The notes beneath the pieces were generated by a model. That model made no database searches and was not told where the DNA came from. It worked only from the letters and a program-made list of their open reading frames with translations. A stretch of DNA of 62,962 bases from an uncultured Planctomycetales bacterium (GTDB taxonomy: Bacteria > Omnitrophota > Gorgyraeia > Zapsychrales > Aceulaceae): positions 1 through 62,962 of the forward strand of contig CAZYOA010000010.1 in NCBI GenBank assembly GCA_964648665.1, read 5' to 3'. Position numbers and translations under genes: made by a program. This document shows positions 6,001 to 44,062 of the stretch, in pieces; position 1 is the first letter of the stretch; every line of letters starts with the position of its first letter.

Positions 6001-6050
6001 AGTCGAAAGTGCGAAAGGCGAGGACGATGCTGAACTTCAAGGCCTAAAAA
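2..6050 (+). other. N-terminal coiled-coil region of the giant protein (~2,000 aa)
   Basis: E/K/Q/L/A-rich sequence, almost no Pro, continuous heptad-like pattern. It ends at SSAVARSASSS and is followed by a hydrophobic helix (LWAIGLGVAGGIGVIGVIVFGWFLI, ~6150-6230). Confidence 0.85.
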
Positions 6051-18000: not shown

Positions 18001-21000
18001 TGTTATTAATCAAGATATAAAAAAGAAAATAGAAAAAAGATATGGAATACATAAAGTTTTAGATTCTTTAAGAGTCGATCGCTTTTTGATTCAAGAGAAA
18101 GGCGGCAATCTTGCGAGTTTTAAAAAAGAGCTTCAAGATTTGTTGGATCAAATTGGGGGCATGTCAAATCGATCTATTCCTTTTGATTTTTCATGGCAAA
18201 TTGTTTTAACAAGTGATGATCATCAAGCCTATGGCATGTCTGATCAGTTGTCGTATGTTATTTATAAGGGAAACACTGCAGAGGTAGAAATTATTTATGT
18301 TCATATGGCGTTTTTTGAACAATTGGAATGGTTTGAAAAGTTTAGCATTTTATCAGATCTTTATTTAGAAATATTAGAAGATTATCTAGAGCGGTATGCA
18401 GAAGTTCGGCAACAAGAACAAATTCATTATCAAGAGTGTTTAAGAAAAGAAACTCCAGATAGATTTTCTTATGAGGTGTTCAAAGAGAGATATTCTCATT
18501 TATCGTGTCGAAAACTTCAGGAAATTTTTGGAAACTTTAAACAAAATAAGTCTAGTTCATCAATTAGTGTTGGTATAATAGAATTGCCGCATCAAGAAGT
18601 TGTTATAAATCGTCTTACCTCGTCCGTGGCTGGTGGGGGTCGATTTTTCTTGGTGCGGCAACGCTTATCTTCTCCTATCAAATCATCTTCAAATCTTAAT
18701 CGATACAGTGCCAAGCAATTGCAAATCCTGAAATCTTCTTTAGCGAGAATTCAGACCGATATTAGAGAAACCGGAAATCCGATAGTCGCATTTGATTCTT
18801 TTTATAATTACATCAAGGGCTTAAATTTTAAGGGATTAGTTAGTACGGTTGATTTGTTTGTTGATAACTATACGCCTGAGTTGTGTAAAATTGTGATTGA
18901 ATATTCATCTGAACAGCTATCTTCGAGAAATGTTGTTATTCAGAAAGTTTTAAGATCTTATTTTGAAGTTAAAAAAGATAATTTCTTTGAATCTTGGGAT
19001 TTATTAAGAGCTTGCATTATTGATATTGTTGAAGAAGATGAGCATTTAGCTTCTTTTTGTTTAACATTGTCTGCTGACATGTTGTACTCAGATGAGCTTG
19101 AAAGGGGCGTTGAGAATTTTACTCAGAAAATTGATCAGCTTGCAAAACAAGTTGATTTTGGAAAGAAAACAACAGAGAATTCAATTTATATTAATGTCTT
19201 TGAAATGATTCGAAGACGGTTACAGAATGATATCAAGGAGAATCAGCGAAATGATAAAGAAAATGATTTTATGCCGTTTATTGTCATCGCTGAAAAAGAA
19301 GCTTGGCTTTATGACAATAATGCTTTTGGAGCAATTAAGCCTGAGGTAAGAGCGCAAGTTGCTTTTCTTTTCAACCAAATAGCTCAGGCATACTGGGAGA
19401 TGGGTGCTTTTAATTATGATTATATTTTAAAAGCAAGAGTGCATATTAGGAAATCTTTAGAGATTGTTCCAGGTTTTGAAGAATATCGCCATCATTTGAT
19501 TCATTCTTATCTTTTAGCTATGAGTTATTTCTTAAATCTTTCTGATATGAAATCTGCAAAAAAAGAGCATGCTGAGGCTAAAAAAATTAATGATGAATTG
19601 ATTGCTGAGGATAAGGTTTCAATGGTGGATTATGTTAGTTTTTATTCTGCAGTTTTTATGCTTGCTGAAAACAATTTAGTGGGAGCAAAAAGAGCGCTTG
19701 TGACGTATGTTCTTCCGTATATTAGTCGTGAAAGAATGTTTGATTGTTTTGATCAAATATTTTATGAGGTTGGTTCTGATCTGGAAGAAAGAGTTTTAGA
19801 TTTCTTTATTTCCCTTTTAGATGATAAACATCTTTTCAAGACACAAAGAATGCTCATTGTATCGCTTTTAGTTTCTTTAGATGAAGAAGATTTGATATTT
19901 GCTTTTGTTGGTCGCAAATTTATTGAAATTTCTTTGATGATTGATCAGTGCCAATATGGTAAAGCACAGGGCGAGATTGAAATTGTTTGGGAGGCAAAGC
20001 CTGGGGATAAGAGAACTGTGGAGCAAAGAGAAAAAATCTCTGATTTAATTAAGTTTTATGATTTAGCTGAAAAAGCTCTTGAGCGAGAAAATGTTGAGTT
20101 GGCATTATCTCATTTCTTGGAGATCTCTAAGCTTAATCCAAAAGATGAAAATGCTAAGAAGCAAATTGAGATTTTAAAGATTAAAAAGGAAGCTGCAAAT
20201 AAGACGAATAAATTTATACAGCAAATTCGGGAGTTTTTAAGATTAGCTAGAAACCAGACAGTAAGCAAGAAAAAAGATAGAGCTGTTGGAAATCTTCAAA
20301 AAGCTCAAGATTTATTGGATTTATTGCCAGCTTCCAAAGAAAAGAAGCTTGTTCAGGCTGAATTTGATCGAACAGCTAAACTTGTTGAGGAGTTTAAGGC
20401 TGATGAAAAAGAAGATATTGTTGTGTCAAAAAAGAAAAGGGAAAAGAAGCTGAAAGTTGTTGCTGCAGAAGAGAAAATTGGCGAGGAGATTGTTCAAGCT
20501 GATAAGCCGGTGCAAATTTACTTTACAAAACAAATGAATGATGATTTTGAGAAAGAGTTTTTTGCTGATCAAGAAAGATTTAAGTTAGCAATTCTTAATA
20601 AAATTGGACGTGTTCGTTTGGGCGAAAATCATGTGTTGGTTGCTTATGTTACGGGATCTGAGCGCGTTTTTCGTGTGCGCAGTAAGAAGGATAGATTAAT
20701 TTATACATTTTTCTATGATGCACAAAGTGAATCTGAAGTTTGGTTGTTTTTTCATTTTGATAGTAAAGGTGGGAATGTTTATAAAACTTTAATCGATAAG
20801 ATTAAACACGCGTTAAGTAATGTTGATAAAGCTTTAAACGAAGGTACGAAAATTATGAACATTGACTCTTCTTCAAAACAGAAGAAAACATCCAGTTCAA
20901 TTGTTGATTCTCTAAATAAAGTAAAGCTAAAATCTTCCTTAAACATTGAAGCTGGACGAAAATTTCCTAAAAATGTTGCCAGTAGCTACATGTCAGTAGA

Positions 21001-24000
21001 ATTTGCATATCAGAGATATTGTGCAAGTCAAAATGGGCGTTTTCAGGCTCGCTTGCCGAATTATATAAGCGTTCAAGCCGATATTGTGTTCCCACTGTTT
21101 TTTGTGTGGAATAAACCCGTCAGTATTTTTGACGGGTTTATTGTTTGGTGGGAACAAAATGTGATGATTGATATAATTCAAGAAATTTCAGAAAGAGATC
21201 GGTCAAAGATTTCTGTTGTGTTTATTGAAAATAATTTTGCCAGTTCTAATATTTTAAGAATTTCAAACGAGGGATCAGCCGTTCTTCAAAAAAGAGACGG
21301 GGGATATCTAATTGACGAAAAAACACAAAGCGTTCTTTATAATCCTGAACAAACTAAGAATTTCTTAGAGACAGTCAATGTATTCTTCGGAGAGACGCAG
21401 ATTTTAGTTTTAGATGGCGGATCTGTTTGCTTGAAAAAAGATAATGACGAGTTTCAGATGTCGAATCCAGGCGCGATTATTATTAAACCTAATGCGAGCG
21501 TTAAAGTTTATCCTAAAGGGGCCGTTTGGATGATCGTCTCTCTTTTAGAGCCGCATTGGTATGAACGTTTTGACCCCTGTGGAAAAGATAATTCCGGAAT
21601 CATCTGGGAGAGGCAAGGCGTTACAGCTCTTTCTCATCCTGATCGTCGAAATTTTTGGAGTCCAGAAGAAAGATCAGAGTGGATGTCTGATTCGGTCTCG
21701 ACGACTTCTCCTGCTGCTGGGGTTTCTCGCGTTCATTATCCAGAAGACCAAGGAGCGGTTCCTTTCCGCCTTCTTAGACCGGCGGAAAAACCGCATAAAC
21801 ATCCGGTCCGAGATGGGGTTAAATCTCAAATTGAAATCTATACGGTTTCGCAGGGCATAGGATGCCTTGTTTATTTTATTAATTCAAAAGTTCATAAATT
21901 ATTTGTTCAGAGAAATGATATTATTGCTATTTTGCCGGAAGTTGTTCATGAAATCATTGCTATGAAGACTCCGTATGAACACCTGGTTCTTCAGACTCCA
22001 TCGACATTTCAATATGGACTTTGGTTCAAAGAAGAAGTTTCTTATGAAAGCTTAGGGCTCAGTTTGCAAGATGTAGATTTATTAATTCAAGAGATATTAG
22101 AAGATATAAATAAAATAAAAAAAGAGAGTTCTTCTTGCCTGTTGAATGTGCGACTTGTTTCTTTGGCGCAAAGATTAAGCGTTTTGAATAAGGGTACAAA
22201 GAACCGAGATAAGAACCTGCTTGCTTTTAATTATCTAACAGCTTTTGGTGGTACTGTTACTTGCATTCTTCACTCTTTTTCTAGTGGTGTTAGCTTTGCG
22301 TTTTGTGATGAGCAAGCTTTTAGATCAGATGTTCGATTTATTTTTTTGGGTCAAGGAAAAAAAGCTTCAAGTAATTTTAAAATTTGCAATAAGCCAACAG
22401 CCGATCATACATTTTCTAATAGATCTAAGTCTTTAAATGCATACATAAAAGCTTTGGTAGAACGAGATAGAGATGTATCTGTAGTTGCAGATTTTGGCAT
22501 TGGAGATAAGTGCTGCAAAAGCTCAATCCAGTCTCCTGTTTTCTTTGAGCTAAGAGATATTTTACTAGAACGTATTTGTTTGGTGGGATTTGATTACAAG
22601 AGCGAAATTGTTAACAACGTTCAGCTGTGTATTAAACAGAAAAGGTTGTGCCACAACACGAGCATTGTTTGCGGAGGTTTTGAGGCGCCGTCAATTTTGT
22701 ATCCTGAAAAGATAAATATTATGCGCTTGCAAAATGTGTGGATGTATTATTCTTTTAATGAACGTACTAGACAGCGTCAGCTTTTAGCAAAGTCTCTTGC
22801 TCCTTTAGGCTTTCTTCTTGGCGGTAACGGTCCAGTGTCTATCGTTTATCAAAAAATAAAGAATGTTTTGGTGCCGATAGAATTAAATATTTTTGTTGAG
22901 TTCTTGCCTGATTTCTCAGATCGCGATGAATTAGAGTTAGCGTTTCATTTGGTAGATGTTGATTTTAATGGCAGAAGGCAACTTTGCATAAATCTTGCCA
23001 CAATGAACTATAGTTATTTGAACGGAGCACTGTCTACAGGTGAGAAAGTTAGGCAGCTTAGCAAATTTTTAAGATTTCATAATTATGAAGTTGTAGATTA
23101 CGGCCTTCCGACGATAAGTCTGAAATTAAATGGTGATGGAAAATTACGTTTAACAAAACGTCATCGTTTGGTTTGTGCATCTTCTTCTCAACTAAAAAGT
23201 ATATTTCCTCTGCGTGTTTTATTTGATGATCGATTGCTACAAGTTGGGGATAAACAAGGAAAAATCAGGCCTATGTATTATGACTTGTCTTTACTTAAGA
23301 GTAAGTGGGAGCAAGATCTTGAGAATTTGCAAAAACATTCTGGCATGACGAGCGATATAAGCCTAATTCTTCAAATTATAGCGCGAGATGAATTTGAATC
23401 TATTATTCAGGCAGGAGTGGTGCAGCGCGGTAAAGCTTTGGTTAGATTTTTGCAGGATATTTATTCAGGTACATGGAAAGTAGTTAAAGAAGGAATCGTG
23501 CCTGAAAGTGTGGTTATAAAAGCTCTTGCAACTCAAGGATATAAAGAGTTGGTTGGCTACTTGCCTGAATCTAGCATAGCGATTACCTATGGTCCGGATT
23601 TAAGCTATCATAACAATTTTGTTCTTGAAGACAACATCGGATCACTAGGGGGCAGAGATACTATTTTTGTTTTAACAAGAGCTATTCTTGATTCTTTTCC
23701 GATGTTGTCGCTAGCAAGCTATAGAGATTTAGTGATTAATTATTTTAAGAAATTAAAGCAGGCGCTTCCAGAAGGTGAAGGAGAGATTGCATTTTGGGCT
23801 GATACTGTATTTGATCAAGATGCTAAATTTCCTTTTGATAACAACCTTATTGAAGAGCTGGGATTTTTCTTTGTTGGGACGGGAAAAGATGGGGAAAATA
23901 AGTTTGAGGTTGTCGATGGAGAAGGATTGTTTGTGATTACTCCTAAGGGTGCAAGAAAAAGAATTCAATATTTAATTTATAATGAATATGATATTAATTT

Positions 24001-27000
24001 AGATCCAGATGCTCTTATTTTTGCTAAAAGAATGAAAGATTTAGAATATGTCAAATTAAGCGATGGAATTCCGGGTATTGCCAAATTGGCTCAAGAGGGA
24101 AAAATACTTTTAAGCCATCATATTGGATGTTGTCTTGCAGATTCAAAATTGATCTATCCTTTTGTAGATAAGTTTATTCGATTTTACTTAAAGGAAAAAC
24201 CGATTTTAAAGTCGACAAAGACCTATTCTTTGTGTTCTGAATATGGATTGAGTCCGATAAAAGCTCAAGAGGCTATAAGAAAAAAAGACTTTTTGGTTCT
24301 TAAGCCGATTAGAGGAGACGGAGGAAACGGGGTTGTTGTAGGTGTTCATAACAATTTTAGGGTGTGGAAGAGAGCTTTGGAGGAGGCTTTTGATAGTCCT
24401 CAAGATTTCTTGTTATTTGAATATGTTAAACCTTTAATTATAAATAATCGCATTACAAGTCATCGCTTGATTGTTGATGTCATGCCAGATCTTAAATGGG
24501 TGACTATGCCAGGTATATATTTGAGAGAGGTTAGTTCTTTAGGAAGCGGCGTTATGAATAGAGGAGAATACATGACGCATTATATGATTGCTTTAGTAGA
24601 GGGAATATCAGAATCTTCAAGTGCGCTTTCTGTTTCTAAGCATCAGATACAAAGGACAATCTTCTCGTCATCTTCTATTATCGTTAAAGCTGATCCAAGA
24701 GTTTGGAAGAAAGCAAAAGATCTTCATCTAGAAGAGACTTTGGGCGAGGCGATTAAACATATTCAAGATGGTTCTGGAAGAATTAAGAAGTTAGGATGGC
24801 ATCATTTGAATCTAGGCCTTTCTAATAAAATAATAGAAATGGTTAGCATGTGTCAGCTCTTTTATAATCAGTATAATTTTTTATATTTTATTTTGCCAGA
24901 TCAGTCTATTTGTGTAATCGAAATGGTTAGCGTTACTGCTGCTTGGAAGGATCGTCAATGGCGGGAGAGTCTGAAGCGTGCTATTGAGCGTGTTTTAAGG
25001 CCTTTTATTGAGGATGAGAAAAGACACAAAAGCTCTGTGGATATGTTGAAAATATTTGTGAACAAAAATCCTGAGAATGTGAGTCTTGCAATGTTGAAAG
25101 AAAGGCCTTTTGTGGTAGTTAATTTCCCTGTTGATTCTACAGGTTCGTTAAAGGAACTTCTTGAGAAAGATGTAGTGAGGTTCGAGGACGTTAAAGGTAG
25201 CGATCAATTTGATGCTTTTGGGAAAGAAAATCCGCATTGTCGCGTTGGCATCGATATGGAGAAAGGTAAAATATTTTTCTCACCTTCATCTTTTAAAGGT
25301 GAGTCGGCGTCTTTCGATGCTTGGTTTACTGTTTGCTTGATAAAGCGATTTCTAGAAAAAAAGAATGCCTCTTCTTTATTGTTGATTAAATCGCATAAGA
25401 ATTTTAATTTAAAAGTAAGCTCGTTGATATTGCAAGGAGCGGCAGAAGCTAGTCTTTTTGGAGAAGAACAGCTGATTCGCAAATGCGAGGATTTGGCGCA
25501 AAGAGGATATTCTAGAGCTTCGATTGGTCTTGAGATAGAGATTGATCGTCCGCTAAGTTTTTGTTCTGAGAAAAGAATAAAAGAGATTATTCAGAATTCT
25601 CAAGACTGGGAAGCAATGCAATATATTAAATTTAGCCCTGATTGGCTTTGTGGCCTTCCTGAATTTGCTTTTGGTCCATCGTGGAGTTTTTCAACGCAAA
25701 TGTATTTGTGGGAAAAAATGAAGGAAATTTTTGGCCTTAACGATAGTGATGTTAATTCTGTGCAGATTAATGTTGGTCTTCCAGCGAATACACTTAGAAA
25801 ATGTTCTAAGATGGGATTTTTAAAAGATTCTAGGTTTTTGATGTTAGCTATTGTCGTAGCTTTTGTTAGCAGCAAGCGAGTAGAAAGAAAAAAGACAAAG
25901 AAAGTTGCTAACGTCGATATAGATGCTATTTCCATTGATGGTAAGAAGCAAGTGCGTATCGAATACGGCTTCGGAGATATTGAAAACTTATCGAAAAGTG
26001 GTTTTATTCTTCATCGTGTTCACTCTGCAATTGAAGAATATTACAGAATTTATCAGCCTAAGAAATATGATATTTTTGAATCTGATCAAGCGTTTCCTTT
26101 GGCTGCGGTTTGGCAGGGAAAAGGCATGCTAGAGTTTAAACCATTGTTGCAAGAATGTGTTTTAAATGGAATTCCAGGTCTAAATTTTAGAAATGCGCAT
26201 ACATTTGAAAAGCTTATTCCTTGGCGTCGAAAGCACCCAATCCTTGTTAACGAAATTCGAGAATTATTATTATCTATGCTGAGCGATTGCCAGCGAGTTG
26301 ACTTAGATTTTGCTGGCAAAGAAAAAGTTTTGTTAGATCCACCTTTTGATTTTGTTAATGTTCGTGCAAGCTCGTTGATATTAACAGAAAAAGATATAGC
26401 GTTATCAAGGCAGCATGGACTTGGCATTCGCTACGTTAGTCCTGTTGGTGGAGAAATTGTTGAAGAAAATGTGCGTGTTGTTGAAATTTTATATCGGGAA
26501 CACCCAAATTATCTTACCGAAAAGATTAATTTTATTGTTTTAACCGAGCAAAGAGCCAAAAAGTTCTTCAAGGATTCTAAGATGATTAGAGTAGCCTTTA
26601 GTGGTCATCTATCTCATGGAAGACAATTGTTTTATCCATTAAAAAATACGATAGATGATATTTATTTATATTTAGGCGTTAAAGGAGCCGGCGATTTAAT
26701 TTCAAAGTGTCTGACATATTCTATTTCAAGATATAGAAATACAGGATTAGCTTATTTGGATGATTTTCAGAATGCAAAGAATTTCACGGATATTCTTAGA
26801 GCGAAAGGTGCTCGCGTTCCTTTACATGTAGCCGCAGGCAAGATGAACCATGTTATTGATCAAGATGGCAATATTGTAGAATTTGATGACAGCATGAGAA
26901 GCTCTACGGCAGATCACGAAGCTGGATTTCAGCGAGATCCAAGTTTGCATTTTATTCTTTATGATTATTATGACAGATTAGGGTATTTAAAAGATGTTGT

Positions 27001-30000
27001 GAAGAAGGATCCAGAGCTTTTAAGAATCAGGGGGCAGCTTGGAAATTTATCGCAAGAACAATACTTTCTCCATATTATTAAAGAATTAGCTTATACCGAG
27101 GCTAAGAAAGTAGAATTAGGAGTTGCAAAAGTTTCATTTCATGAAAATGATATTACGCTTGCTGGAATGGAAGTAGATTGGGATGAGGCGGCTTATATAA
27201 AAGATGTTGATTTTGGTAGTCCATATTCTTCTTTAACAAAAAATATGCAGGAAAAGAAGTTTTATGAGAAACATGGATTTATTTTATTTGATTACAACAG
27301 AAAAATAGAGATCTTGCAAAGATTTCAGATTTCTTTAAAAAAGTACGCCTTGTTTGAAATTTCTAATATCAGTGTGCAGCAAGAATTTTATCGTACATTT
27401 CTAGATAGCTTAAGTCTAGATATGCGTCGCAAGGTTATTGCTGCCACTTCATCAAATATTAAAATAAAAACTGCTATAGCTAGTGATATCTCATCCATTC
27501 TATCTCAATTCAGAGCTTTAGAAGGACAGACTTATAATCACATGGACGATGAATTGTCCGCGTTGTATGCCGTTAGATCTGAATATGAGCTTGTTGATGC
27601 TGATCAAGGTCTTTTAAGAAATCCACTTAAAATCAGAGATAGCAAATTGAACGCTTGCGTGCTGTCTGATTCGACTGTTTCACAGGCTGTTGCTTATGGA
27701 GCGATTGATGGAGAACATATTCTTCACTATCAAGGATTGCATAGAATTTTATGGACTTATTTTAAAGAAAAACAAGAAATTGTGATTTCTCTTCGGGGGC
27801 AAAAAGGAGGGCACGCTATTAGATGGAGTGCAAAAGAGAATTCTGTTGAGATTCTTTTTGCGAGCGAGCGCCACGACAGAGGTGAACAAGGTTTTTATTT
27901 CGGCGATAGCATTCTTAAAGTTGAAGGTCAAGACGTTGTATTTAATATGACTACTTTTCTTGCTCGGCCAAAAGATGCATTAGATAAGTTCCAGCTTAGT
28001 AAATATGGTTTGAAAGAAATGCAAATCGTTCAGGTTTTAGTTCCTGACGAAATTCTTTGGAAAGAGGTGTTGGTTAATTGTTGGAGTGGATTGCTTCCAT
28101 TTTTACAAATGAGAATCCAGGTTGTTTCTCCATCTATTATTAATAGAAATCCACAGAATTATCCTTATTTTGTAGATTCGCCTATTTCATCGCCTCTTCG
28201 ACGCTCTTCCTTAATGATAATTCTAAAAGAAACATCTTCACAAAAGATTTCAGAAATCCTTAAAGCTTGGTATTCAAAGCCGCGAGAGCTTTCGCTTATG
28301 CCATCTGAAGCACCACAGCATCTTTATTATGTTGTCGAGGAAAAAGAAATTGTTGCTATTTTAATAGCAGCGTATCCGAACGACGCGACGTGGTCTGCTT
28401 TAAGAATGTTTACTGTTGATTTATTAAAAGACGGTTTTTATATTGATTGCATTGAAACAGATGAATCTGTGAAGGGCAAAAGATGCGGAGAGTTGTTGTT
28501 GCGTGAATTTGTTTATGATTATAAGAAACATGATATGCTTGGAGACGGCGGAGAATCTGGAGCGCGCTGGCAATCGGTTTGGGAGGACCTTAAATTTCAT
28601 GAGACCATACCAGGATTTTTCGTCCGAAAAGGTGGTGTGAGTTCATCAAACTTAGGATGTAGTTATACAAATAGAAAAGTAAAACGTCATCGCATGCTTT
28701 GGTTGATTAGAGCAATCTCCGATTATGATAAATCATTATTTGACGAAATCAAAACTTTATTTCGAGGGGATAAGAAGAAGCAAAATATTTTAAATGTGAT
28801 TAATGATCATCGAGATATCGGTATTACAAGATTGTATCAGCGTGTTGATGGAGTAAGTTCTGCAAGGAAATTGAATCAACTGTTTGATAAGATGATTGAA
28901 GGCATTTTAAGGGGGCGCCCTAAAGCAAAAGAATTGTATTTAGAGGCTGGTGCGCTCTTCGAAGGTGGATATGAGCATGTTGAGCAAATAACAAAAGAGG
29001 ATGTGTTTAATATTATTTGGGTTTTGTATCAAATTGGAATTGAAAAAGAGAAAGAGCTTGATCGATTAATTATGCTATTTCCAGCGGCGATTAACCAGGC
29101 TCGATACAATCATGAGGCAGGAATTATTTCGGAAATAGGAGGCATTGTTCGAAAAGCCTCTCTTGGGATATCTCTAGCTGATATCATTGATCAAAGACAG
29201 AAATCGAACAAGAACTTATCTTTAGCGACGAATAGCAGGCAAGTCTTTGCTTATCTTTTGCATTTCGCACAGATTCCTTGTGTTGCTCAAAAGGTTTCTG
29301 AGTATCGCGAACAAAGCAAAGAAGTTGACGGGATTGTCAAGGAAAGCCCTCGAATTGCGCTTTCAAAGGTAAGAGGAATTATTCAGAATTTCTATTCTTT
29401 AGATCCGAAATCTTGGAGACGTCTTAAGAAAGATTTCTTTCATCTTCCTTCGATGCAAAAGTTGTCTAGAGGTAGGGGTATCTTTAAGAAGAAATTAGGT
29501 GAAAGATGGTCTGCTCTAGAGTATCAGGTTCAAGGTGGAGACCGTAGCCGTGAGGTTGTAACTTTAAGAGAAGATTTCAAGCTAGAAGATATACAGGTTA
29601 GCCTTAAGCAGGTACTTGAGCACCCTCTTGTTCAGTCTGAAATTTTGAATAAAGAAAAATATCCTACAGGTAAAGAACGTCGCCGTATCCTTAGAAGTAT
29701 TCGAGGCTACATGGAACACGCGCAAAAGCATGTAAAAAAAGAATCGTATCCACAAGCACTTGACTTTTATCAGAAGGCTAAAGATTTGATAAAAGGGTTA
29801 GGCTTTGATGCTAGAGCCGTTCGATCTTTAAGTGAACGCATTGATAGTGGGTGGGCAGAAGTAGAACGCTTAAGAATTGAACAAGAGATGCATAATTTTC
29901 GGTTAGATGTAGTTGTTGTGAATGAATCTTCTGTAAATGAATTTTTCTCTCCCCTTAGTCCGCATTTTGAATTGTTTTCTTCCTTCCCAAAAAATCAATG

Positions 30001-33000
30001 GAAAAATATCATTAATAAAGATATACAGGAAAATACTTTTGGTGTTATTGCAGGGTTTAAAAATGCGAAGAATCAGTTTGTAGCTTTAATGTATTATCAC
30101 AAAAAAACATATTCTTTCTTAGACGAAAAGTTTTATGTAGGCTCTCCGGAATGTGTACCTAAAGAAATATTTAATATTGTTTTTGCTGAAACTTTAAAAT
30201 CATTTGATCGGTCAAAAGAATTTATTGAATTATTAATTCAAGAAGCTATAAATCTTAGCCTGCAAGACATATCTTTAGATTTAAAGTTTCAAGGTGCTAT
30301 AACTTTTGATTATGTAACTTGTGGGACAGAAGCAATCTCTGAAAAAAGTATGAAAGAGTTTTTAAAAGGTTTAGGATTTCAAGCAGTATTGCTGGAGAGA
30401 CCTGTAGGGCTTTTTGAAACAGCAAAAAGTGAAGCTGGTTTTATGTTTTTGGCTAAAGACGCAAATGAGTCTCAAAATCAGAATAAAGATCTTAGTCAGC
30501 GTAAGAGCAGCTTATCATTACAGCTAAAGAAAGTAGCTTCTTCTAGCCTTGATCGACTTATTGTAAAACTCAAAGTTATAAATGAAAAAGAATTTTCAAG
30601 ACGACCAGAAATTATTAGCCATCATGGACTTCCTCATTCTTTAGCTGTTTGGAATGCGTGTAAAGCAGTTGCCGGTGAATTTGGTGCAGATCTTGAGGTT
30701 TTAGCTGTCGGAGCATTCTTACACGATATTGGCATTGCTTATACCGATGACATGCGTCATGGTCGTGTAAGTGTTAGAAGGGCAAGGCCTCTCTTAGAAA
30801 GCATCGGATTCGTACGAGAAAAAATTGATCTAGCTATAAGAATTATTGATGAACATGATGATTATAAGGTCTATAGAGAAAGTATAGAAAGCCAGATTCT
30901 TTTTTATGCAGACACAAGGGCTGCTTTTGGGGCTCGAGGAGCGCAAAGATATATCGACATTTATAAGGAGCGGGGTATTCAAGAATCAGACATTCCAAGT
31001 CTTGCTTTAAAAAACATGAAGAAAAGATATGATTTGGTTCTAAATTTGGATTTTAAAGCAAAGCTCAAAGTTCCTTATAGTCGCGGTCAGAAGTTTTTGC
31101 AAGACATCGTCGATGGTAACCATAGATCTAAAGTTTCTAAACTTAAGACGCCAAGATTTTATATCTTGGATCATGCTTTTTGGATTTCACCGTATCTTTT
31201 GAAGCAAACACAAAGGCGCCACCGAGGTAAGAATGAAAGATATGAAGTTACGCTAATTGATCAAACGTCTGGTCTTTGGATTAAGTTTCTTTATAAAAAG
31301 AGTGAAAATTGTTTTGTTATTAAAATTCCTGAATTTTGTTGGCATAAAAAAGTTTTTCCACTTTTGCTAGAAAGAATTTACCTTAAAGATATTTTTAAGA
31401 AAAGCGTAAAACTTTTAAATTACAGAATTGTATTTCAGTTTGTATTGCGCATGATGATAGCTCGACATCCTTTTGTTTCGGTCGACAAGGCTGTTTTTGA
31501 AGAAGTTGAAGCTTTTGGTCAAAGAAAAGAGATAAATAAAACGCTCACACAGAAGTATGTTGATTTTGTAGGATTTCATATGATTGGTATTTTAGAGGGA
31601 ATTCAGGGTCATGTTAATCGTTATCGAGATAGCGACAAACAAACTGCGTTATTTTTTATTCTTTCAGATAAAAATGATTCTTCTATTTTTATCGTTGTCT
31701 GTCGTATTGGAGAAAAGATTTATATTCTCAATTCTGATATTTCTTTTGATGAGCTTTTTCCTAAAAAGAACGGCAAGCTTTTAACTAAGCGCATTGATCT
31801 TAAGCAGAACAAAAGCTTTGCTAAATTTTTATCGAAGATGAACGTTAGGTATAGAGAAGGAAAAGAACGTAAATTTAAAGAAAATGAAAAAGTTCTCTTT
31901 TATTTTAATAAAACAGCGGTCAAGGCAAGAGCGAATCAGCCTGTGGACGCGGTTAAGATAAAAGATCCATTAATTAAAAAAGGTATTTTGGGTGGTCAGG
32001 TTGATATCTTAAGCAGAAAGAACGGAGAGCTTTTGTGTCGAGTTATCCACGTCTTAGAAGATAAAGAACAAGGTGTTATTTTTACGATTGAAGGTCTTGA
32101 GCTTGAAAATGGCCAACTTCTTCGTGTTGCTGTGCAAAGTACAGTTATTCATCTTAATCGAGTTTTTACGCTTTTTAATCTTATCCGAAATGTCTTAAAG
32201 CCTTCTGCGCAAAAACAATTGGATGTTTTATCTGAAACGTTTTCTTTTGCATGTATTGCAAAATCAAATTACCAAGTTCCTTATCAAATAGATTCTGAAT
32301 TAGGACAAATTACATTCTTAAAGACGACTGGTGAATCAAAAAAGAAAAATTCATCTAATATTATTCTGCTGGATTTATCAATAAATAAAAAGATTCGTAA
32401 GAGTTCTTCAAATATTGACTTAGGAAAAGACTCTGGGAAAGAAGCTGGATCTCTGTGGCAGCAATTTAGGTTGGCTGATCATATTATTGAGAGTGAATCG
32501 AAAGAGCTTAGATGGCTTAAGAAATCATATAAGATGATTAATTATATTCGAAGAATGTTAGCAAAGATTGCTTTGAATCAAGAGAATGTAGCTCTTCGAG
32601 AAGATGAAATTGATCAGATTAGAGATGTTTTAAAGTCCTTAATTGATGAGGGAGAACAAGAAGCTGGCATGAAGCGTCCCATCAAAAAGGTGAAGATACA
32701 AATTAAAGAACGATTAGAGTTTGCTTTGGAATATGTCGAAACGCAAAAGTCGGCAGCTTTTGCAATTTTTTTAAGTGATACCTTAAGGCTCATGGTTCAA
32801 AGAGGAAAAGCAATTAGAAATATTATAAATTCTATATATAATTGTCAAATTTTAGGCTTAGAGAAGGAGTCTAGTTCTAAAAGCTTTGAATTCTTAAGAT
32901 ACATAATTAATATCGAGCAAGAAATTAACGTTGGTGGACTTAATGCTGCTTATAAATTAATTCAGAAGCTTAAAAACGCAGAACATTTAAGCTGTTGTTT

Positions 33001-36000
33001 TGATAATCCTGATTTTCGGCGTGCTCGACAATCATTAAGCTTTGCAGGCTGGCTGATAAGAACCAAGGGTGACTTAGACATTGCTAAAAGACAAATACAA
33101 TCTATCAAGTTTGCAACCTCTAGATCTCAGTATTTAAACTCATTTATGCATATATTTCGAAAGAGTTATATTTTAGATAAACTTGATGGTGAAGGGTTTC
33201 CAAAAAAGAGAATTTTTAATTTTGCTTATAAAAAGTTTATGTTGGAAAATAAAATGTCGTTAACGTGTGTACAGGCGAACATGTTACATGTTCTTTTTTA
33301 CTCTTGCGTGTTTATTCCTTTTAAGATTGATTCACTGAAGAAAAAAGGAAAACGAATTAAAAATCCTTTATTTTCAGCTTTTTTATCTTTCATGGAAATC
33401 CAACAGCTTGCTTCTTTTAATTATCTTCGTAAGGACACAAGAAAGAAAATTCCCGCAACTTCAGCATGGATAGATCAATTTATAAAAATGGGCAAAGAAA
33501 ATTTTTATTGTTTATCTCAAAGAGAACGAATGAATATTATTGATGCTTTAGTTGAAGATTATGCGTTAACAAAAGAAGACCGTTCTCATATTGTTTTTTC
33601 ATCAATCTCAAAAGAAAGACATGAAAAATATTTATTTGATAAAGCTTTTCAAGTTGTTAAATCAATTGAAAGCTTGTGTCAGGAAAATAAATTTGATTGG
33701 TTTGATGAAAGAATCAAAGAAAAAATAGAAAACTTGATTTTCGAAATTCGTCAGAATCTAGAAATTGAGAGAGGTATTGTTTCTGAAAAGATTATTGAGA
33801 TTTTGCAGATGGTTATTCTAGAGTCATTTATCCCTGAGTACGACACAAATATTTTAAAGATTCTTTATGAACTTGTTTTGTACCAAGACATGTATCTAGG
33901 GCCAGAGTGGAGCAACTATATTGTGTCGTTGTTAAGCCGACAACAGGAATTCTCACCTGATTATGAAGATGTTGTAAGAATGGCTATGGTTGTTTCAACG
34001 CAAAATCTTAAAAGAAAACCAGATAATAAAAGAAATAAAAAAAGTAGTTCACAAATTTCATCTTTAACGTCGGTAAAGCTCCTTGGTTTTACATTTAAAA
34101 TAGATGATAAGAGCGCGGCATGCGAAGGAACTCAAGGAATTAAGCTTATTGCTGAATGGAATGATGAAAAAAAAGCTGGCATATCGGATATTTATATTTA
34201 TAGTCAATTTTATAAAAATGGAGGCCGGTCTTTAAGAGGTGTTTATATTGATTCTCAGTTTCAGGGTCTTGGTTTTGTTTATCCTGTTTTATCGATGTTT
34301 TTTAGTATATTTAAAGATGTTCGATCAACACATCCTCTGTTGGTTTTTCCGGGATTTCTAACTCTTTTAAGAAATGAATACGGATTTTCTCCTGAAAGAA
34401 ATGAGGAGCAAAATGCTGTTTTTAGCCGAAGTTTAGATGAAGGAAAGCATTTAATTTTCTTTTTTGATCAAGATGTCGAGATGCTTTTTACTGATCGAGG
34501 AGCTCAAGTTTTACATAAATATCGAATAGTTAGGAATGTTAATCAGGTTAGAAATCCAATTCCATTGTTTTTAGGAAATCCACTTGTTGTAAAAAAGGAA
34601 CAAAAGTTTCAAGATTCTATTTCGCGATATCCATTCGAAATGGTTTCAGGAAAACCAGAAGATCTAGCATTTGGTGTTTCGAAAAGTTCTTCATTGATAA
34701 AATATGATTTTCTTACGCGTCTTAAGCAGTTTGATGGCATGGTGATTGAAATCAACGATTATTATGGGGCGCCAAATATACAAAAACAAGCCATGCTTTT
34801 AAGAAGAGCTGTTCAGGTTCAAAGGCTTCGGCGCACTTGTAAGCAAGAATCCTTTTTTGTAAATAAAGATGACTGCTTTAATGATACTTTGATAAAACCT
34901 GGCGATCGCATTCAATGGCTTTTGTTTGGTGGCCTTTTGCGGGCTTGCCTTGTGGATATGTTAAAAAAGATTCTCAAGCATGAGAAAGCTTTAACAAGCG
35001 AAGCGAACTTAGTTTTTGCGTTACCGCTTTTTGCTATTAATACGCGTTATCGATTCTACAGGGCAAATGATATAGGTGAATTTCGAGACTATCCGCATCC
35101 TCAAAAAATTCCGCAACTTCTTGCCGAGCATTCCACGCGAGGAGAATTGACAACAGGAAAAGAAGACGATGTGCTGTATGGCAAAGATTATTTCACGTTA
35201 GATTATCCTAAACAATATACAGCTGTGATTCGTAATAATGGTCAAATTTTGCGTGTGATTCCCGCTCAAGGTAAATTAACTTTTACCTTGGATTTTTTTA
35301 CATCGTTTGAATCTATGGAAGAACATGCTTTTCAGGCACTTGCTTCATCTGCGATGATTTTGTCTTTCGGTTTGAGAAGCCCTATGGGAAAGTTACTGCT
35401 TGTTTCTTCATCGGCAAAGAGAGTGAGCTCGTTTTGTCTTGAAGGTGGGCAGGGGTCTTCAACTATTCAGGTTGCGTCTTCAGGCCAAAGTTCCTATCCT
35501 GCTAGGTCTAGTGTAGAAATTATGAAACCGCAAGTTTCTTTAGCGGACATTAGAGCTTCCTCAACGGTTGGTAATCAATTAAATTTTAGAACTTCTGAAG
35601 GGGTATTGTTATCCGAAGAGCCTCGAAAGCTTCCAAGCCATATTCGCCAAAGCGTGCTACCAAAAGGTAAAACGATTGTTGTCATGGGGAAAAATGTTGA
35701 GCGCGACGCGGGGCAGACAATTGAAATGTTAATGAAGCACAACACTGTCATTTTGATACTAGCTGACAAATCTATCGAAACGGAGAAGGCGCTCATTGAA
35801 GCAAACCCAGATATTATTATTGCCCCAGATAGAGACAGCGTGTCTGAAGCGCTTATTCAGGAGTATTGCAACAAGCAAAAAAGAGAAGTCAATGTTCTTT
35901 ATTATTGGAATCTGGCAGCCATGTTGCAAGGAAACCACATAGATGTTTCTCAAAAACCAAACTTAAGTGTGGCCGGTGAGCATATTCGCCTTGTAGTAGA

Positions 36001-39000
36001 ATCGATACAGGCTCATGGTACACAAGTTCCTCGTAAGGATTTTCTTTATAGGACAGCTTATGACCGAGGCGTTGAATATATATCCAAAGCCTCAGCCATG
36101 ATCGCAGAGCTTTTAGGGCTTAATTTTACGTCTGGAAAACACGCAAATAATTTTGTTGTAACTAAAATAACAAAGAGAGGCAAGCTTCTCGCGCCGGATT
36201 CATTCAAGAGATATCAAATTGTTTTTAACGGAGAAAAAGAAAAAGACGGGTTTGAAATTATTGATATGTATACAGGGCAGCCAGTCTTATTTATTTCTCC
36301 CCATCCAGATGACCCTGAAATCTCTGCAGGATTCTTGCTCATTTTTCTTCTAATTCAGGGTGCTTCGATTCACAATATTATTTATTCATCTGGAAAGAAT
36401 GGTGTTGTTGATGATGATCCTCTGCTAAAAGAGCTTCGCGAGAAGTTTAGTTTTGAGCCGGAAATGGCCAAGGCTATAATAAGAACGTTTGAGGCTGGGC
36501 AATCAGCTATGTTTTTACGTTCGGCTTTATTGGCTTTGGGAAAACTTAAAGGTGACATTGAGGTCTTGAGCTTAACGGCAGATCAGATATTTTCTAATGG
36601 CAAAGAAAAAGATACTCGTCTTTATAAAAGGTTTTCGGCAGTCTTACAGAATCATCTTAGGTTTAGAGCAAGCTCGAAAGAAGGAATCAACAAGCCAGAT
36701 CTACCATTTGTTGTTGCGCTTACTCATCCGGTTGACAGGCATCCAACGCATATTGATGCCTACAAGAGGAGCATTAAGGTTCTTCATCAGTTAGCCGTAA
36801 AGTATAATATTGAAATTCAGATTATCTATTATATGCCGCCATGGCAAGGGGATTATGACACGTATTTTCAATCTTCATCTAAACAAAAAATAGAGGACGT
36901 TGCTCGTTTAAGCAAAGAGGATCAGATTACAGCATTGATGTCTCAGGGAATGGCTTATTTTACTGCAGAACTCACTATGAAGGCGTTTGGAGCTAAGGTT
37001 CCTTTCCTTAAGGATATGGGCGGAGAACGTGTTGAGCGGTTTAGAAGAGGTGTGGTTAGAGCGTCTTCCTCAGCAATCGATTGTAAGTTTTTAATACATT
37101 TTTCCAAGGTCAGAAAGTCGCTTTCAATTTATTCTTGGGAAGGCGGCTCTTTGGAGCAAAAAGAAAGAATTGAACGCTTGCTTTCTGGTTTAAGCCAAGT
37201 TATTCCTAAAAAACATTGTGAGTATTTAAAATATATCCACCTACGCTCTGGTTTTGTTTGGAATAAATTTACGGGTCTCTTTACTCGAGCGGGGGGAGGT
37301 ATGGTGCGTGATAAGCATGGGATTATTTTTTATAATATAGATTTGCTTTCAGATTATGAGCTAAAAGAAAAAATATTCCACGAGATTGGTCATTTGGTTC
37401 AGCGTCATCTAGATAAAAAGACGAGAAGAAGTTGGCCAGTTAGTATGATTACTCACCTTGACGTCTATGCTCCCAGGGCCCTTGTTACATCTCTCATAGC
37501 TTTATTAATAATGGTTAACATGTTCGGCATGCACGTTTCTTATCATGTTCCAATTGCCCTGTTTATTTTCTATTATTATTATTGGTTTTTTGCGCGTCGA
37601 ACCATGCGGAAAATCTTATCATTACAAGGAAGTTATGTTTCCGATTACGCCACTCATAATTGTAGCGAAGATTTTGCAGAAAGTTACAGGTATTATTTTC
37701 TTTATCGCAATGAATTTTTCAGTAAGGCTAAAAAGAATGACATATTGAATGTTAAATTCAAGATACTGCAAGAAGAAGAGGAAAATGCCATTTCCTCGCC
37801 GGTAGTTTCTTTGGGAACAACAATAGCTATTGTTGGCCTTGGTAGATGGGGTCAAATTTTGGTAAAAGTGTTAGATGATTTTCTAGAATATAATATTATT
37901 GGAATTGCTCGCAGTAATTATGAAGAGCTAAAGAAAAGAGGGCCTCTTGGTGTAAATGTCAAAATACTTAGTCATAAAGATTATCAAGTGCAAGTATTAA
38001 ATAATCCTGATATAAAAATAGTCGTTATTGCTACTCAGCCTTCCAGTCATTATCAATTAACCAAAGATGCTCTTTTAGCAGGGAAGAATGTTCTTGTTGA
38101 AAAACCATTTGTACAGAGCTTGGAAGAAGCGCAAGAGTTAATAGGGCTTGCCAATAGGAATAATCAAGTTTTGGCTGTTGGGTATGAGCTTATGCATGAT
38201 TATTATATTAATTTGCTCAAAGATATTATAGAAAACAAAGCTATTGGGCGTGTTATCGGAGCCGAGATTAATATTATGAATTTGTCTTTAGAAGAAAAAT
38301 TGAACATAAGCGTTAATGTTGTAGAAGAATTGGGTGTGCATGCTTTTAGCATTGTTCAAGTTCTTTTTGGGGTGAGAGAAACGACGGAACTTTGTGCTCT
38401 TGTAAAAGAAAATAAAGCTCAGGTTGGATTTATTCATGATGGCATAAAGGTAATGATAAATGTTTCAACAGAAGCTCAATATAAAAAAAGAACAATTATT
38501 GTCAAGGGAGACAACGGGACAATTGAATTAGATTATGCTATTGGCAGTTTTATAGCGAAAGATAATTATGGAAATATGATTAGTAAAGATGATCTAGGGC
38601 TTTCAGAGCAGTTGTTGGCTAAAAAAAGAAATTCACCTTCAACGTTGGAGGCCGAATTTAAATTGGTTTTAAAAGCAATCGAGACAGGTAGTGAACTTAT
38701 TAATAGTGCTGAGAATGTTTTGTGGATAACAGCTCTAACTAGCCAGATTAATCATCTTGTCTTGGCAGAGAATGGAGTGTTGCCTGCAAGTTTTTATGAT
38801 ATAGATATTAGCAAGAATATGCCTCAAGGGAAAGCAGAGGCTTTTATTAGAGGAGAATATACAGAGTATCCATTTAAGGTTGAATTTTATGTTGGAACAC
38901 ATTGCCCCGGAAATTGTATATTTTGCCCAAGAAATGTTGATGGGGAGATGTGTAATTATGATACGGAGGCAGAAGCTGGCTTGGTTAAGCTTTCACCCGA

Positions 39001-42000
39001 ACAATACACTAGATTGGTTTATGATTGTGCTGACAACGGAACAAAAGAAATTGAAATAACCGGAGGGCTCGAGCCGCTTACTGATGTTTCTGCTGTGATT
39101 GCAATAATTAAGGCTGCAATAAAAAAAGATTTAATAGTTTATATTTATACTTCAGGAATTCCAAGGCAATTTCAGGTAGGTATGCCTTGGTTACTTAAGA
39201 CAAGTAAGGTGAGGATAAGCTTGCATGCTGCAACGTCAGGGACATATCATAAGGTTGTTCGGCCGAGCACTAAGGAGGAACAATCTAAGAGAATATTTCT
39301 TTCGGTTTTAGAAAATCTGCGTTTACTCGTTGAAAAAAGAAATAGTGATCCAATATCCAAGACTTGCCTGGGGATTAATATTGTTTTAACTGAGTTTAAT
39401 TATCATGAAATTGTTTTGATAGCTGATTTGGCTTATGATTTGGGATTAGATTTCTTGGATATTCGTTTAGATTTTCAAGATAGTGAATATTTTACACAAG
39501 AGCAAGAAGCAGAGCTTGTAGGTCTTATGGGAAAGCTTCGTAGAAATACGAGTGAAAAGAAATATGGAGATTTAAGGATCAGTTTTCCTGTTTGCTTTCT
39601 TCCTTTTGATGGTTATTTTATCAAATGGCAAGATTATCCAGAAGACGTAGATACATATTCTGAGTTTGGAACATACCCCTTTGAAATTATAATTGATCCT
39701 TTTGGAGGTGTATTTTTTACTTCTACATCTGCAATGCCAGGTAATCGTCATCTTGACATTCTTGAAAACAAAGAATTAGGTGTCGTAACAGGTAATGCTG
39801 ATGAAGAAATTAAGATGATATTAAAAAAAAATATAGAAAAAAGAAGAAAATTTAAATTTACTGCAAAAGAATTGAATGTTTTTACTAGAAAAATGTTGCT
39901 TGATTTAAAAGCGATAGAAAAATCAACAGGTAGCAGTGTTTTGATTGCTCAAGAAGTTCTTAATAATTTTTTTAATAGAGGAATCGTTTTGGAAATAGTC
40001 GATTATGAGCATAGTGCGAATGCTCCGCCGCAAGGCGTTATCTCCTCGCCTGTGAAATTTATACTTGTTGCAAAGCTGGATTCTTATTGTTTTGACTATG
40101 ATTTTGAAGATACAATGTATGTCTTAGAAGCTCTTCCATCAGATAAAAATTTGAAGAGTTTTCTTGATAATCAAGACATGGAATTTGCCTTTGTGATGAT
40201 GATCACAAATCAAGGTCCAAAGTTGTTTATGATTAAGGGGCGAACAAGTAGGCAGGCTGTGCATATTCAAAAATTAATTAGGAGCGTGTTGAGTAGTTAT
40301 AAAGGAAAGATATTATTTGCATTACATAATCATCCTATTGGTGCAGGTTACTTTCCGAGTAGAGGTGATTTTATGGGAATGATTGTGGAGTATGATGATC
40401 TAGTTGAATTGGTTGAGAAATTTTACCTGTACAGTCCTTTTCATAGAGCGTACATAGAATATAGCAATAAGAAAGAAGTAGAAGATGAAGTTCTTCGATT
40501 TAAAGTAGAGTTTTCAGATGGGAATTCTGATGAGTTTCATTTTGAAGAAACTTATAGCTATTTCTTTAATTATCCTTTTGATCCAAGAAAGGAGATTAAG
40601 CTAGATAATTCCGCTGTTAACGAGGAGTATATTAGGTTTGTTGAGAAATTAGAAGAAAGACGAGTAATGTTTTTAGGATGGGTATTAGATGGGGCAAAAA
40701 AAATAATCATAGAATCGTGTATTGGAAATGTGGCTATTTGGCATAAAGATCTTAACCTTCTTAATGATTTCGCGCTCAATGTCAATAATGATTCAAGATC
40801 ATATTTGCGAAAAGTAAGCTTGGTGATTGATAGATTTGATTTAAGTTTTTTAACTTATTTTTCGAATAAATCTTTTCTTTCGTCGGTAAAGAAGACAAAT
40901 CTGTTTTGTTTTCGAGGCGGACAAGAGCCTCCAACTGTCCAGGCTGTGTCTTCAAGTATTGCTTTAACTTATATGATAGGCTCTGGCTGCTTGACGTTTG
41001 CGGCAGAGTTTTTAGGAAATTATTTTGCTACTAAGAAATTTGATCTTAAGCATGCTTTGCCATTTTTTGTTTTTGGCGCGTTGGCAGGATATGAGTTTAT
41101 TTCATTAACGGATTTTGTTTATGTTCAGATACCTTTGCTTAGCTTTGGAGTGAATGATATTTTTAGGGCTGTATCGCTTATGGTGATAGGAGGATTCATT
41201 GGAGTTCAGTATTTATTATTTAATCATTTATTGCACAAGATCTTTCTTAGAGACAAAGACCTGACCGACGAGGCAGAGCTTGATTTTAATCTTAAGAATC
41301 AAATGAGAAAGATCGTTAAAGTGTCCCCTGTTTTAGGTCTCATCATTTTCTTAAAATATTTTCTTATTCAGCGTTTTTTGCCAGAATTGTTACAGCCAGC
41401 TGTGCTTATGTTTTGGGGCTCTTTAACGCTTGTTGTAGCTAGTTGGGCTGCTAACTCTGAGAAAGTCGTAGTTTACAAGGAGTTGCTAGATAAGGTTAAG
41501 GGGCGGATAGGAATGAGTTCTAAAAAGCATAATTTAAAAAAGTCTTCTAGCTCGCTCCTGGTTTCGAGCAATATGCGAAATCCTTCATCTAGTCTTCGTC
41601 GTCATCGGATGGTTTGGTTAATAAGGTCTATTTCTGATCACCTTCCAGAAGTATTTCAGAAAATTGAGAATAAATTTAATGAAAATTCTGATTATGTGAA
41701 TATTTTAAAAAGTCTTAATGATCTTCGAGATATTAGAATTTCTGTTATTCACACGCATATTCATATGGACACACATAGATTTGATCGGCTTTGGGATAAA
41801 ATGATTGATGTTGTTTTAGAATCCATTGATGAAGTAAGAAGTCTTTATGTTGAGGCGGAAACACTTTTTATCGATGAAAGCGACTCTGTTGATAAGAATT
41901 TCAAGGGGGAAGATTGGAGTGATATTGTATGGGTTTTGTATTCGATGAGCATTAACGAAAAGAAAAAGCTAGAACGTTTTCTTGTTTTGTTTCCCGCAGC

Positions 42001-44062: not shown

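Follow-up and report, generated by a model that had tools for sequence, protein, structure and literature searches.

The locus raises the question of whether two similar stretches of about 400 residues, lying 13 kb apart in one giant reading frame, are copies of a single undescribed unit, where such a unit would begin and end, and what it might do. The analyzed DNA (hereafter, the window) comprises 62,962 nt of contig CAZYOA010000010.1, from a 1.65-Mb, 88%-complete metagenome-assembled genome (MAG) of the Omnitrophota. Its host gene is an uninterrupted frame of 14,686 codons (window 2..44062) that continues beyond the contig's 5' end and encodes an Archaeovorin-type multi-enzyme protein carrying both copies. 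All features described below lie on the forward (+) strand, and residue numbers (aa) are those of the translated frame. An initial annotation, made from the letters alone, had proposed a 395-aa domain of no known family, present twice and each time starting right after a serine-rich junction. Taking the demonstrated parts together with the proposed role, we put slightly above even the reading in which the two are paralogous copies of an Omnitrophota-specific module that acts as a non-catalytic scaffold or adaptor.

Duplication of the module and its relatives

When aa 9541-9990 were compared with aa 13851-14300 by BLASTP, one co-linear alignment of 400 columns was obtained (residues 9560-9958 and 13865-14260), with 127/400 identical positions (32%), 58% positives, 5 gaps, and an E value of 4e-63 under composition-based statistics. 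This bears out the full-length co-linear similarity proposed at the outset, and all of the motifs listed then (RHRM.WLIR.ISD, DKMI, WVLY, LFPAA.N..RY.H, HFA.I, DFK.ED, EHPL, and KYP..RR.IL) are present in the alignment. In a tiled self-BLAST, the pair is the strongest internal repeat of the giant protein, and a six-frame search of the 1.65-Mb assembly recovered exactly two copies, both within the giant frame. The module boundaries were placed at aa 9556-9961 and 13861-14262. At the DNA level, the divergence noted earlier was confirmed as well, with 51% identity over 401 aligned codons and only short co-linear patches in blastn. Since the DNA is only 51% identical, the duplication is old and cannot be an artifact of assembly. 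The giant protein is Lys/Glu-rich with long coiled-coil stretches, and these do yield weak self-matches (e.g., 223-349 against 1103-1232, E about 1e-4); nevertheless, an origin of the similarity in composition or coiled coils, in a recent DNA repeat, or in the assembly, instead of in ancient paralogy, was rejected as practically nil, given the E value under composition-based statistics, the 400 co-linear residues with only 5 gaps, the recovery of the module family in three other genomes (E 1e-100 to 1e-198), and a DNA identity that leaves no recent repeat available for mis-assembly.

A profile search of 1.84 billion representative proteins gave five matches, two of which reach the core of the module. 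These are P0001, a 2,017-aa contig-limited fragment from the same-genus genome G001, and P0002 (MFC1594528.1), a 5,562-aa partial protein from another Omnitrophota MAG (E 6e-21, about 22% identity). Among the other three, there is a low-complexity eukaryote-like repeat, and the remainder are proteins whose similarity is confined to the TPR/MIT-like C-terminal cap described below. Six-frame scans of 60 relatives, 400 genomes phylum-wide, and 400 class-wide found the module in four genomes only, i.e., that of the window (G000), G001, G005, and G359. In G005, which belongs to the same family, it occurs twice (copies a and b, about 1,000 residues apart) within a 26,689-aa frame, and in G359, from another family of the class, it lies in a 29,111-aa frame. 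When GTDB genome contigs and JGI metagenome contigs were scanned with sequence patterns, nothing emerged beyond the G005 contig already known. The search for other copies that had been suggested was thus productive, and the family counts seven sequences in five proteins, the module-bearing frames being always giant and all from Omnitrophota. The placement of the host in this phylum agrees with the NCBI names of P0001 and P0002. As the 21,496-aa giant frame of G004 has another shared cassette and no module, the module is accessory.

In the phylogeny, window copy 1 groups with the G001 copy (support 100/99) and the two G005 copies group with each other (84/89); window copy 2 sits on a long, unresolved branch. 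Given these pairings, either duplication recurred or copies within a gene were homogenized. Copy 2 is an old paralog or a fast-evolving one, and no ortholog of it was found among the genomes and proteins searched.

An orphan helical core, its cap, and the attached domains

The first part of the module is a non-repetitive core of about 330 aa, located at 28667..29668 (aa 9556-9889) in copy 1 and at 41594..42571 (aa 13865-14190) in copy 2, the latter delimited by BLASTP, the six-frame search, and the copy alignments. The AlphaFold2 model of the whole unit, built from a five-copy alignment, is entirely helical, with 22 helices, a mean predicted local distance difference test score (pLDDT) of 86, and a predicted template modeling score (pTM) of 0.76; about 19 of the helices fall within the all-alpha core of copy 1, whose first conserved helix reads KRHRMLWLIRAISD. 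Internal helical repeats within the core were considered and rejected, with alternative hhalign self-alignments scoring at most 1.1%.

Neither the two copies nor their relatives gave a significant core match in Pfam-A, NCBIfam, or PHROGs (best, DUF1351 with E 0.088, which the other copies did not repeat). A profile search of PDB sequences returned only a de novo helical design (E = 1), and Foldseek against PDB and BFVD folds gave whole-length hits with a best E of at least 1.1, probability of at most 0.11, and TM-score of at most 0.17, its high-probability matches being confined to the C-terminal three helices or, when included, to the GNAT part. Within these curated families, the PDB, and BFVD, the core lacks a detectable relative among described families or solved folds, and with PADLOC equally negative, the early view of the family as undescribed holds for the core. 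The one PADLOC match, of copy 2 to AbiEii (copy 2 residues 161-248; window 41582-42787; E 9e-4, 17 bits), falls on the C-terminal helical tail of that model, is absent from the other copies, and is probably noise. Two further candidates were discarded. Circularly permuted ATP-grasp enzymes, one of which lies nearby in the giant protein, usually have Alpha-E (PF04168) as their all-alpha partner; the core was rejected as such a partner, as the genome has no PF04168 match and the 7-copy profile, aligned with hhalign to a bona fide Alpha-E protein from G032, reached a probability of 0.5%. Reading "RYNH" as a HEPN-like Rx4-6H motif was likewise discarded on inspection by eye, since the His varies across copies.

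The five closest copies share sixteen invariant polar residues, and twelve polar or charged ones remain across six (R9, R15, D112, R146, D172, R177, K276, R280, D308, H319, Y332, and R338, in copy-1 module numbering). With the addition of P0002, which has no DF..ED segment and whose alignment is uncertain in the C-terminal third, most invariant columns are occupied by hydrophobic residues (M, W, F, L, I, V, A, G, and P), and the polar invariants left are Y91, D172, Y213, Q264, H319, and Y332.

The last three helices, some 70 aa or about 17% of the module, form a cap, located at 29669..29884 (aa 9890-9961) in copy 1 (Foldseek, unit hidden Markov model [HMM], and profile comparisons) and at 42572..42784 (aa 14191-14261) in copy 2 (unit HMM, E 1e-29). 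In Foldseek, the cap superposes locally on the MIT domains of Vps4 and MITD1 (2w2u, 2v6y, 4a5x, and 1yxr, over 65-72 columns), with a probability of 0.85-0.97, a TM-score (target) of 0.63-0.73, and a root-mean-square deviation of 2.2-2.6 A. For the copy-1 cap, the local hits to Vps4 and MITD1 MIT domains with a probability of 0.95-0.97 have TM-scores of 0.64-0.79 and a root-mean-square deviation of about 2.3 A. As modeled, the cap has the form of an MIT/TPR-like unit, with three helices packed into an asymmetric bundle of about 70-80 residues that can be superposed on MIT structures. Its consensus, A..l...G.Y..A...Y..A...L..LG, resembles TPR and MIT, and a profile of 11 units matched the consensus TPR at 4.4e-5, the Atg38 MIT at 0.005, and the Vps4 MIT at about 1. 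When the 11 units were run singly against Pfam, none reached a gathering score (MIT in 2/11, best E 0.036; TPR_2 in 4/11, best E 0.019; TPR_1 sub-threshold). The 395-aa domain conceived as one orphan unit therefore survives as the core of about 330 aa, but not in its last 70 or so residues, which form a three-helix bundle of a well-known type.

The tail of the module varies by genome: the HMM detects between one and five MIT/TPR-like units in it, and a GNAT-fold domain may be present or absent. The cap has been amplified in G005, where the HMM finds five units following copy a and, following copy b, two units and a marginal third. Given the five tandem units of copy a, amplification of the cap does not require that of the core. 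These units, of about 65 aa each (L008 10100-11120; giant aa about 16702-17038), sit between the copy-a core and its GNAT-fold domain. A tentative second TPR-like unit in cassette 2 of the window (43004..43207, aa about 14335-14402) matches TPR_10 below threshold (E 0.043) and is absent from the unit-HMM matches; high-scoring segment pairs (HSPs) from the G005 repeat region reach aa 14359-14368, within it.

A domain of about 185 residues follows the module and precedes the next junction in window copy 1 (29900..30451, aa 9967-10150), G001, and copy a of G005. It is absent after copy 2, where the remainder of the cassette consists of about 190 residues of unrelated helical sequence. In copy 1, Foldseek matched this domain to more than 40 GNAT structures at a probability of 1.00, with AtaT, TacT, and KacT at the top (best E 7e-4, AtaT), at modest TM-scores (0.45-0.62) and on a model of medium confidence. 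The order of secondary structures also fits the GNAT fold (beta1-alpha1-alpha2-beta2-4-alpha3-beta5-alpha4-beta6), and a motif-B-like FLK.LGF segment is retained. At the sequence level, the domain has no match in Pfam or among PDB sequences. GNAT enzymes bind the pyrophosphate of acetyl-CoA through a loop, Q/R-x-x-G-x-G/A, between beta4 and alpha3. This loop is not conserved in the three orthologs, which read SFDRSKE (window), SCDDSQG (G001), and KRGAALALETPA (G005). To the eye, the cassette directly upstream of copy 1 (window 28190-28639, aa about 9400-9546) has a GNAT-like appearance as well, with VKGKRCGELLL resembling motif A, and copy 1 may have GNAT-type domains on both sides.

Ser-rich junctions and the assembly of the giant proteins

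Runs of at least three Ser occur 35 times in the giant protein, against 6.1 +/- 2.5 expected from shuffles, and the junction motif is therefore not due to chance. The runs are typically preceded by K, A, or V and followed by L or I at the first or second position. Based on Ser-run counts and boundary comparison, cassette 1 (630 aa) opens with the SSS junction at 28640..28648 (aa 9547-9549, GGVSSSNLG) and closes with that at 30539..30547 (aa 10180-10182, KVASSSLDR), and cassette 2 (584 aa) opens with SSS at 41585..41593 (aa 13862-13864, NPSSSLRR) and closes with four Ser at 43346..43357 (aa 14449-14452, ERVSSSSIL).

Homology begins at aa 9560 in copy 1, 10 residues past its SSS, and at aa 13865 in copy 2, directly past its own. 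In 6/6 close copies from four genomes, the first conserved helix, [KR]R[HQY]RM.WL[IL]R, starts 2-14 residues past a Ser junction reading SSS, SST, or SSP, as had been claimed for the two window copies, and no extension of the homology upstream across the junction was observed. At the other end, homology stops at about aa 9958 and 14260, and the next junctions, at aa 10180 and 14449, come 220 and 190 residues later. The duplicated unit is thus not "exactly the inter-junction cassette" of the initial annotation; the N-terminal boundary coincides with a junction, whereas the C-terminal one falls short of it. Only in G359 does the module end at a junction, the core and cap filling a 513-residue cassette, possibly with further weak cap-like units.

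Boundary signatures of other kinds were seen in two of the related proteins. The G359:C26 giant (L018, 29,111 aa) has a very regular junction, SSP[ILVM], which occurs at 83 sites where shuffles predict 1.3, and which is a far sharper motif than the SSS-x-hydrophobic form of the window. In P0002, a hydrophobic segment is followed by Y-L-L-P-T-x-[SP]-x-L-L at least three times (aa 281, 1122, and 3393), and a related motif, S-L-L-P-[WR]-x-N-A-P-P, is found at aa 265 and 4462.

The neighbors of the module, the cassette order, and the copy number differ between genomes. In G001 and G359, the module lies amid cassettes with no counterpart in the window, and G005 has homologs of the window cassettes 11842, 10816, and 9558 in reverse order. 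Only two cassette families are common to the three fully compared giants, and the module is one of them. Of the homology-block ends, 27% are no more than 30 aa away from a Ser run. Relocated blocks gave 9.8 +/- 3.3%, and the observed 27% was attained in 0/2,000 relocations (P < 0.0005). At the same time, the median distance of block ends to Ser runs does not differ from random (195 versus 197 aa), which probably reflects that three or more Ser are an incomplete definition of a junction and that HSP ends are fuzzy. The modular assembly proposed at first is borne out by the scrambled cassette order and by block ends near Ser runs above chance, and these comparisons support a module that behaves as a swappable, shuffled unit of Archaeovorin-type giants.

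The second shared family lies at window 25412-26380 (aa 8471-8793) and has no Pfam match; it is 56% identical to its homolog in G005, where it is duplicated, and 35% to that in G359, and is present also in G001, G004, G006, and G007. Another internal duplication was noted at window 13985-14935 (aa 4662-4978), where adjacent, overlapping units of about 200 aa (4662-4862 and 4770-4978) share 24-26% identity (E 3e-17) and a G359 homolog is 43% identical. Apart from a WD40-like propeller, the Pfam domains of the window giant are scattered enzyme domains only (GDPD, circularly permuted ATP-grasp, HD, PIG-L, Gfo/Idh/MocA, and radical SAM). The first in-frame ATG is at window position 242, with the true start probably elsewhere; the G005 giant is likewise open at its contig start, so both proteins are longer than the quoted lengths.

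Possible functions and place among known systems

The copies stem from an old duplication, within a giant modular gene or between such genes. The module most likely acts on the cytoplasmic side as a non-catalytic scaffold or adaptor, whose helical core and peptide-binding TPR/MIT-like units would hold a partner, be it a further cassette or a protein; in the copy-1 lineage, this partner could be the attached GNAT-fold domain. Such a role is favored since the invariants shared with P0002 are mostly hydrophobic, the core is a non-repetitive helical bundle, and the cap is made of TPR/MIT-like units; by itself, the module is probably no enzyme. A cytoplasmic location is probable for both copies, judging from hydrophobicity and neighboring domains. 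No strong hydrophobic segment interrupts the long stretch that copy 1 shares with the ATP-grasp and HD domains (Kyte-Doolittle, Pfam), and copy 2 comes just after a hydrophobic helix cluster followed by a Lys-rich stretch (40949..41449, aa about 13650-13816), which a Kyte-Doolittle scan marks as probably transmembrane and whose topology we infer.

Several points weigh against this scaffold or adaptor role. It would follow from the modeled fold class and from the absence of a clear catalytic constellation, and the three-helix TPR/MIT-like similarity is generic, with all matches under the Pfam gathering score. Moreover, many charged and polar residues are invariant in the six closer copies and could mark an active site. 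The fold-neighbor negatives cover the PDB and BFVD, and relatives may exist among predicted cellular proteins.

The core could instead be an undescribed enzyme, in which the conserved Arg, Asp, His, and Tyr (motifs LFPAA.N..RY.H, DF..ED, HP, and KYP) form an active or metal site to which the cap brings substrate. We consider this unlikely, even though the polar invariants of the five and six closer copies fit it, the conserved motifs lie in loops between helices in the model, and enzymes make up most of the remaining cassettes of the giant protein. Most of these polar invariants are lost in the distant P0002, along with the DF..ED segment. In addition, no likeness to any enzyme fold in the PDB was found by Foldseek, there are no nucleotide- or cofactor-binding signatures, and all-alpha non-repetitive bundles are more often scaffolds. 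The suggestion that the conserved R/H/D/Y residues mark an enzyme or binding domain thus draws on a real polar invariance among the closer copies, but the mostly hydrophobic pattern that emerges with P0002 leans against catalysis.

Also quite unlikely is a module serving as the N-terminal arm, regulatory or targeting, of a GNAT-type effector. The ancestral cassette would then have comprised core, MIT/TPR-like unit, and GNAT, as in window copy 1, G001, and copy a of G005, and the GNAT-less copies (window copy 2, copy b of G005, and G359) would be decayed or repurposed remnants. It is true that the same GNAT-fold domain occupies the same cassette in 3/6 copies and that its best folds are tRNA-acetylating toxins (AtaT, TacT, and KacT), fitting the effector-like cargo suggested for the giants. 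However, the GNAT-less form is well conserved and occurs in three lineages, including G359, the most distant of the close copies; the acetyl-CoA loop is unconserved even among the three GNAT-fold orthologs; and the tree does not split GNAT-bearing from GNAT-less copies, as copy a of G005 pairs with copy b. Very improbable, finally, is a core whose new fold serves the giant protein itself as a docking or recognition platform that organizes or processes the Ser-junction cassettes; the invariant N-terminal helix and the TPR/MIT-like units might, for example, bind junction segments or released cassettes. The context for such a platform is a module family that all three fully compared giants possess, two of them in duplicate.

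Among known systems, the host protein resembles the Archaeovorin-type giants of Omnitrophota (West-Roberts et al. 2023, bioRxiv 10.1101/2023.11.21.568195) in that a small Omnitrophota genome carries a single frame of more than 14,000 aa, dotted with transmembrane segments and containing many unrelated enzyme and other domains (radical SAM, TPR, ATP-grasp, and HD, among others). That paper states that it had no information on cleavage points or unit boundaries, and a 2026 preprint (10.64898/2026.06.07.730766) describes domain repetition within one polypeptide as "the rule, not an outlier." Unlike the repeats accessible to such surveys, the module of the window is not a Pfam domain and so is invisible to them, and here, in contrast to the 2023 paper, a Ser-rich junction marks the N-terminal boundary of the module in four genomes. 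The cap shares its three-helix bundle and consensus with MIT (Vps4, MITD1, Atg38, and calpain-7; PF04212) and with TPR; unlike MIT, it occurs in TPR-like tandem arrays, as in the five units after copy a of G005, and the data imply no ESCRT-III-type partner. The domain that follows copy 1 has the topology and the motif-B-like segment of the GNAT acetyltransferases of the AtaT/TacT/KacT kind. It differs from them in its unconserved pyrophosphate loop, and it is the partner of the module, not the duplicated unit.

Although the module alone reveals no new mechanism, it adds a well-defined, confidently modeled orphan domain family to the mostly unannotated content of the Omnitrophota giant proteins. 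Recurring in different cassette contexts of four genomes, it is a clean marker of how giant genes are constructed, from units that start at Ser-rich junctions and get duplicated, reordered, extended by tandem TPR/MIT-like units, and fused to a GNAT-fold domain.

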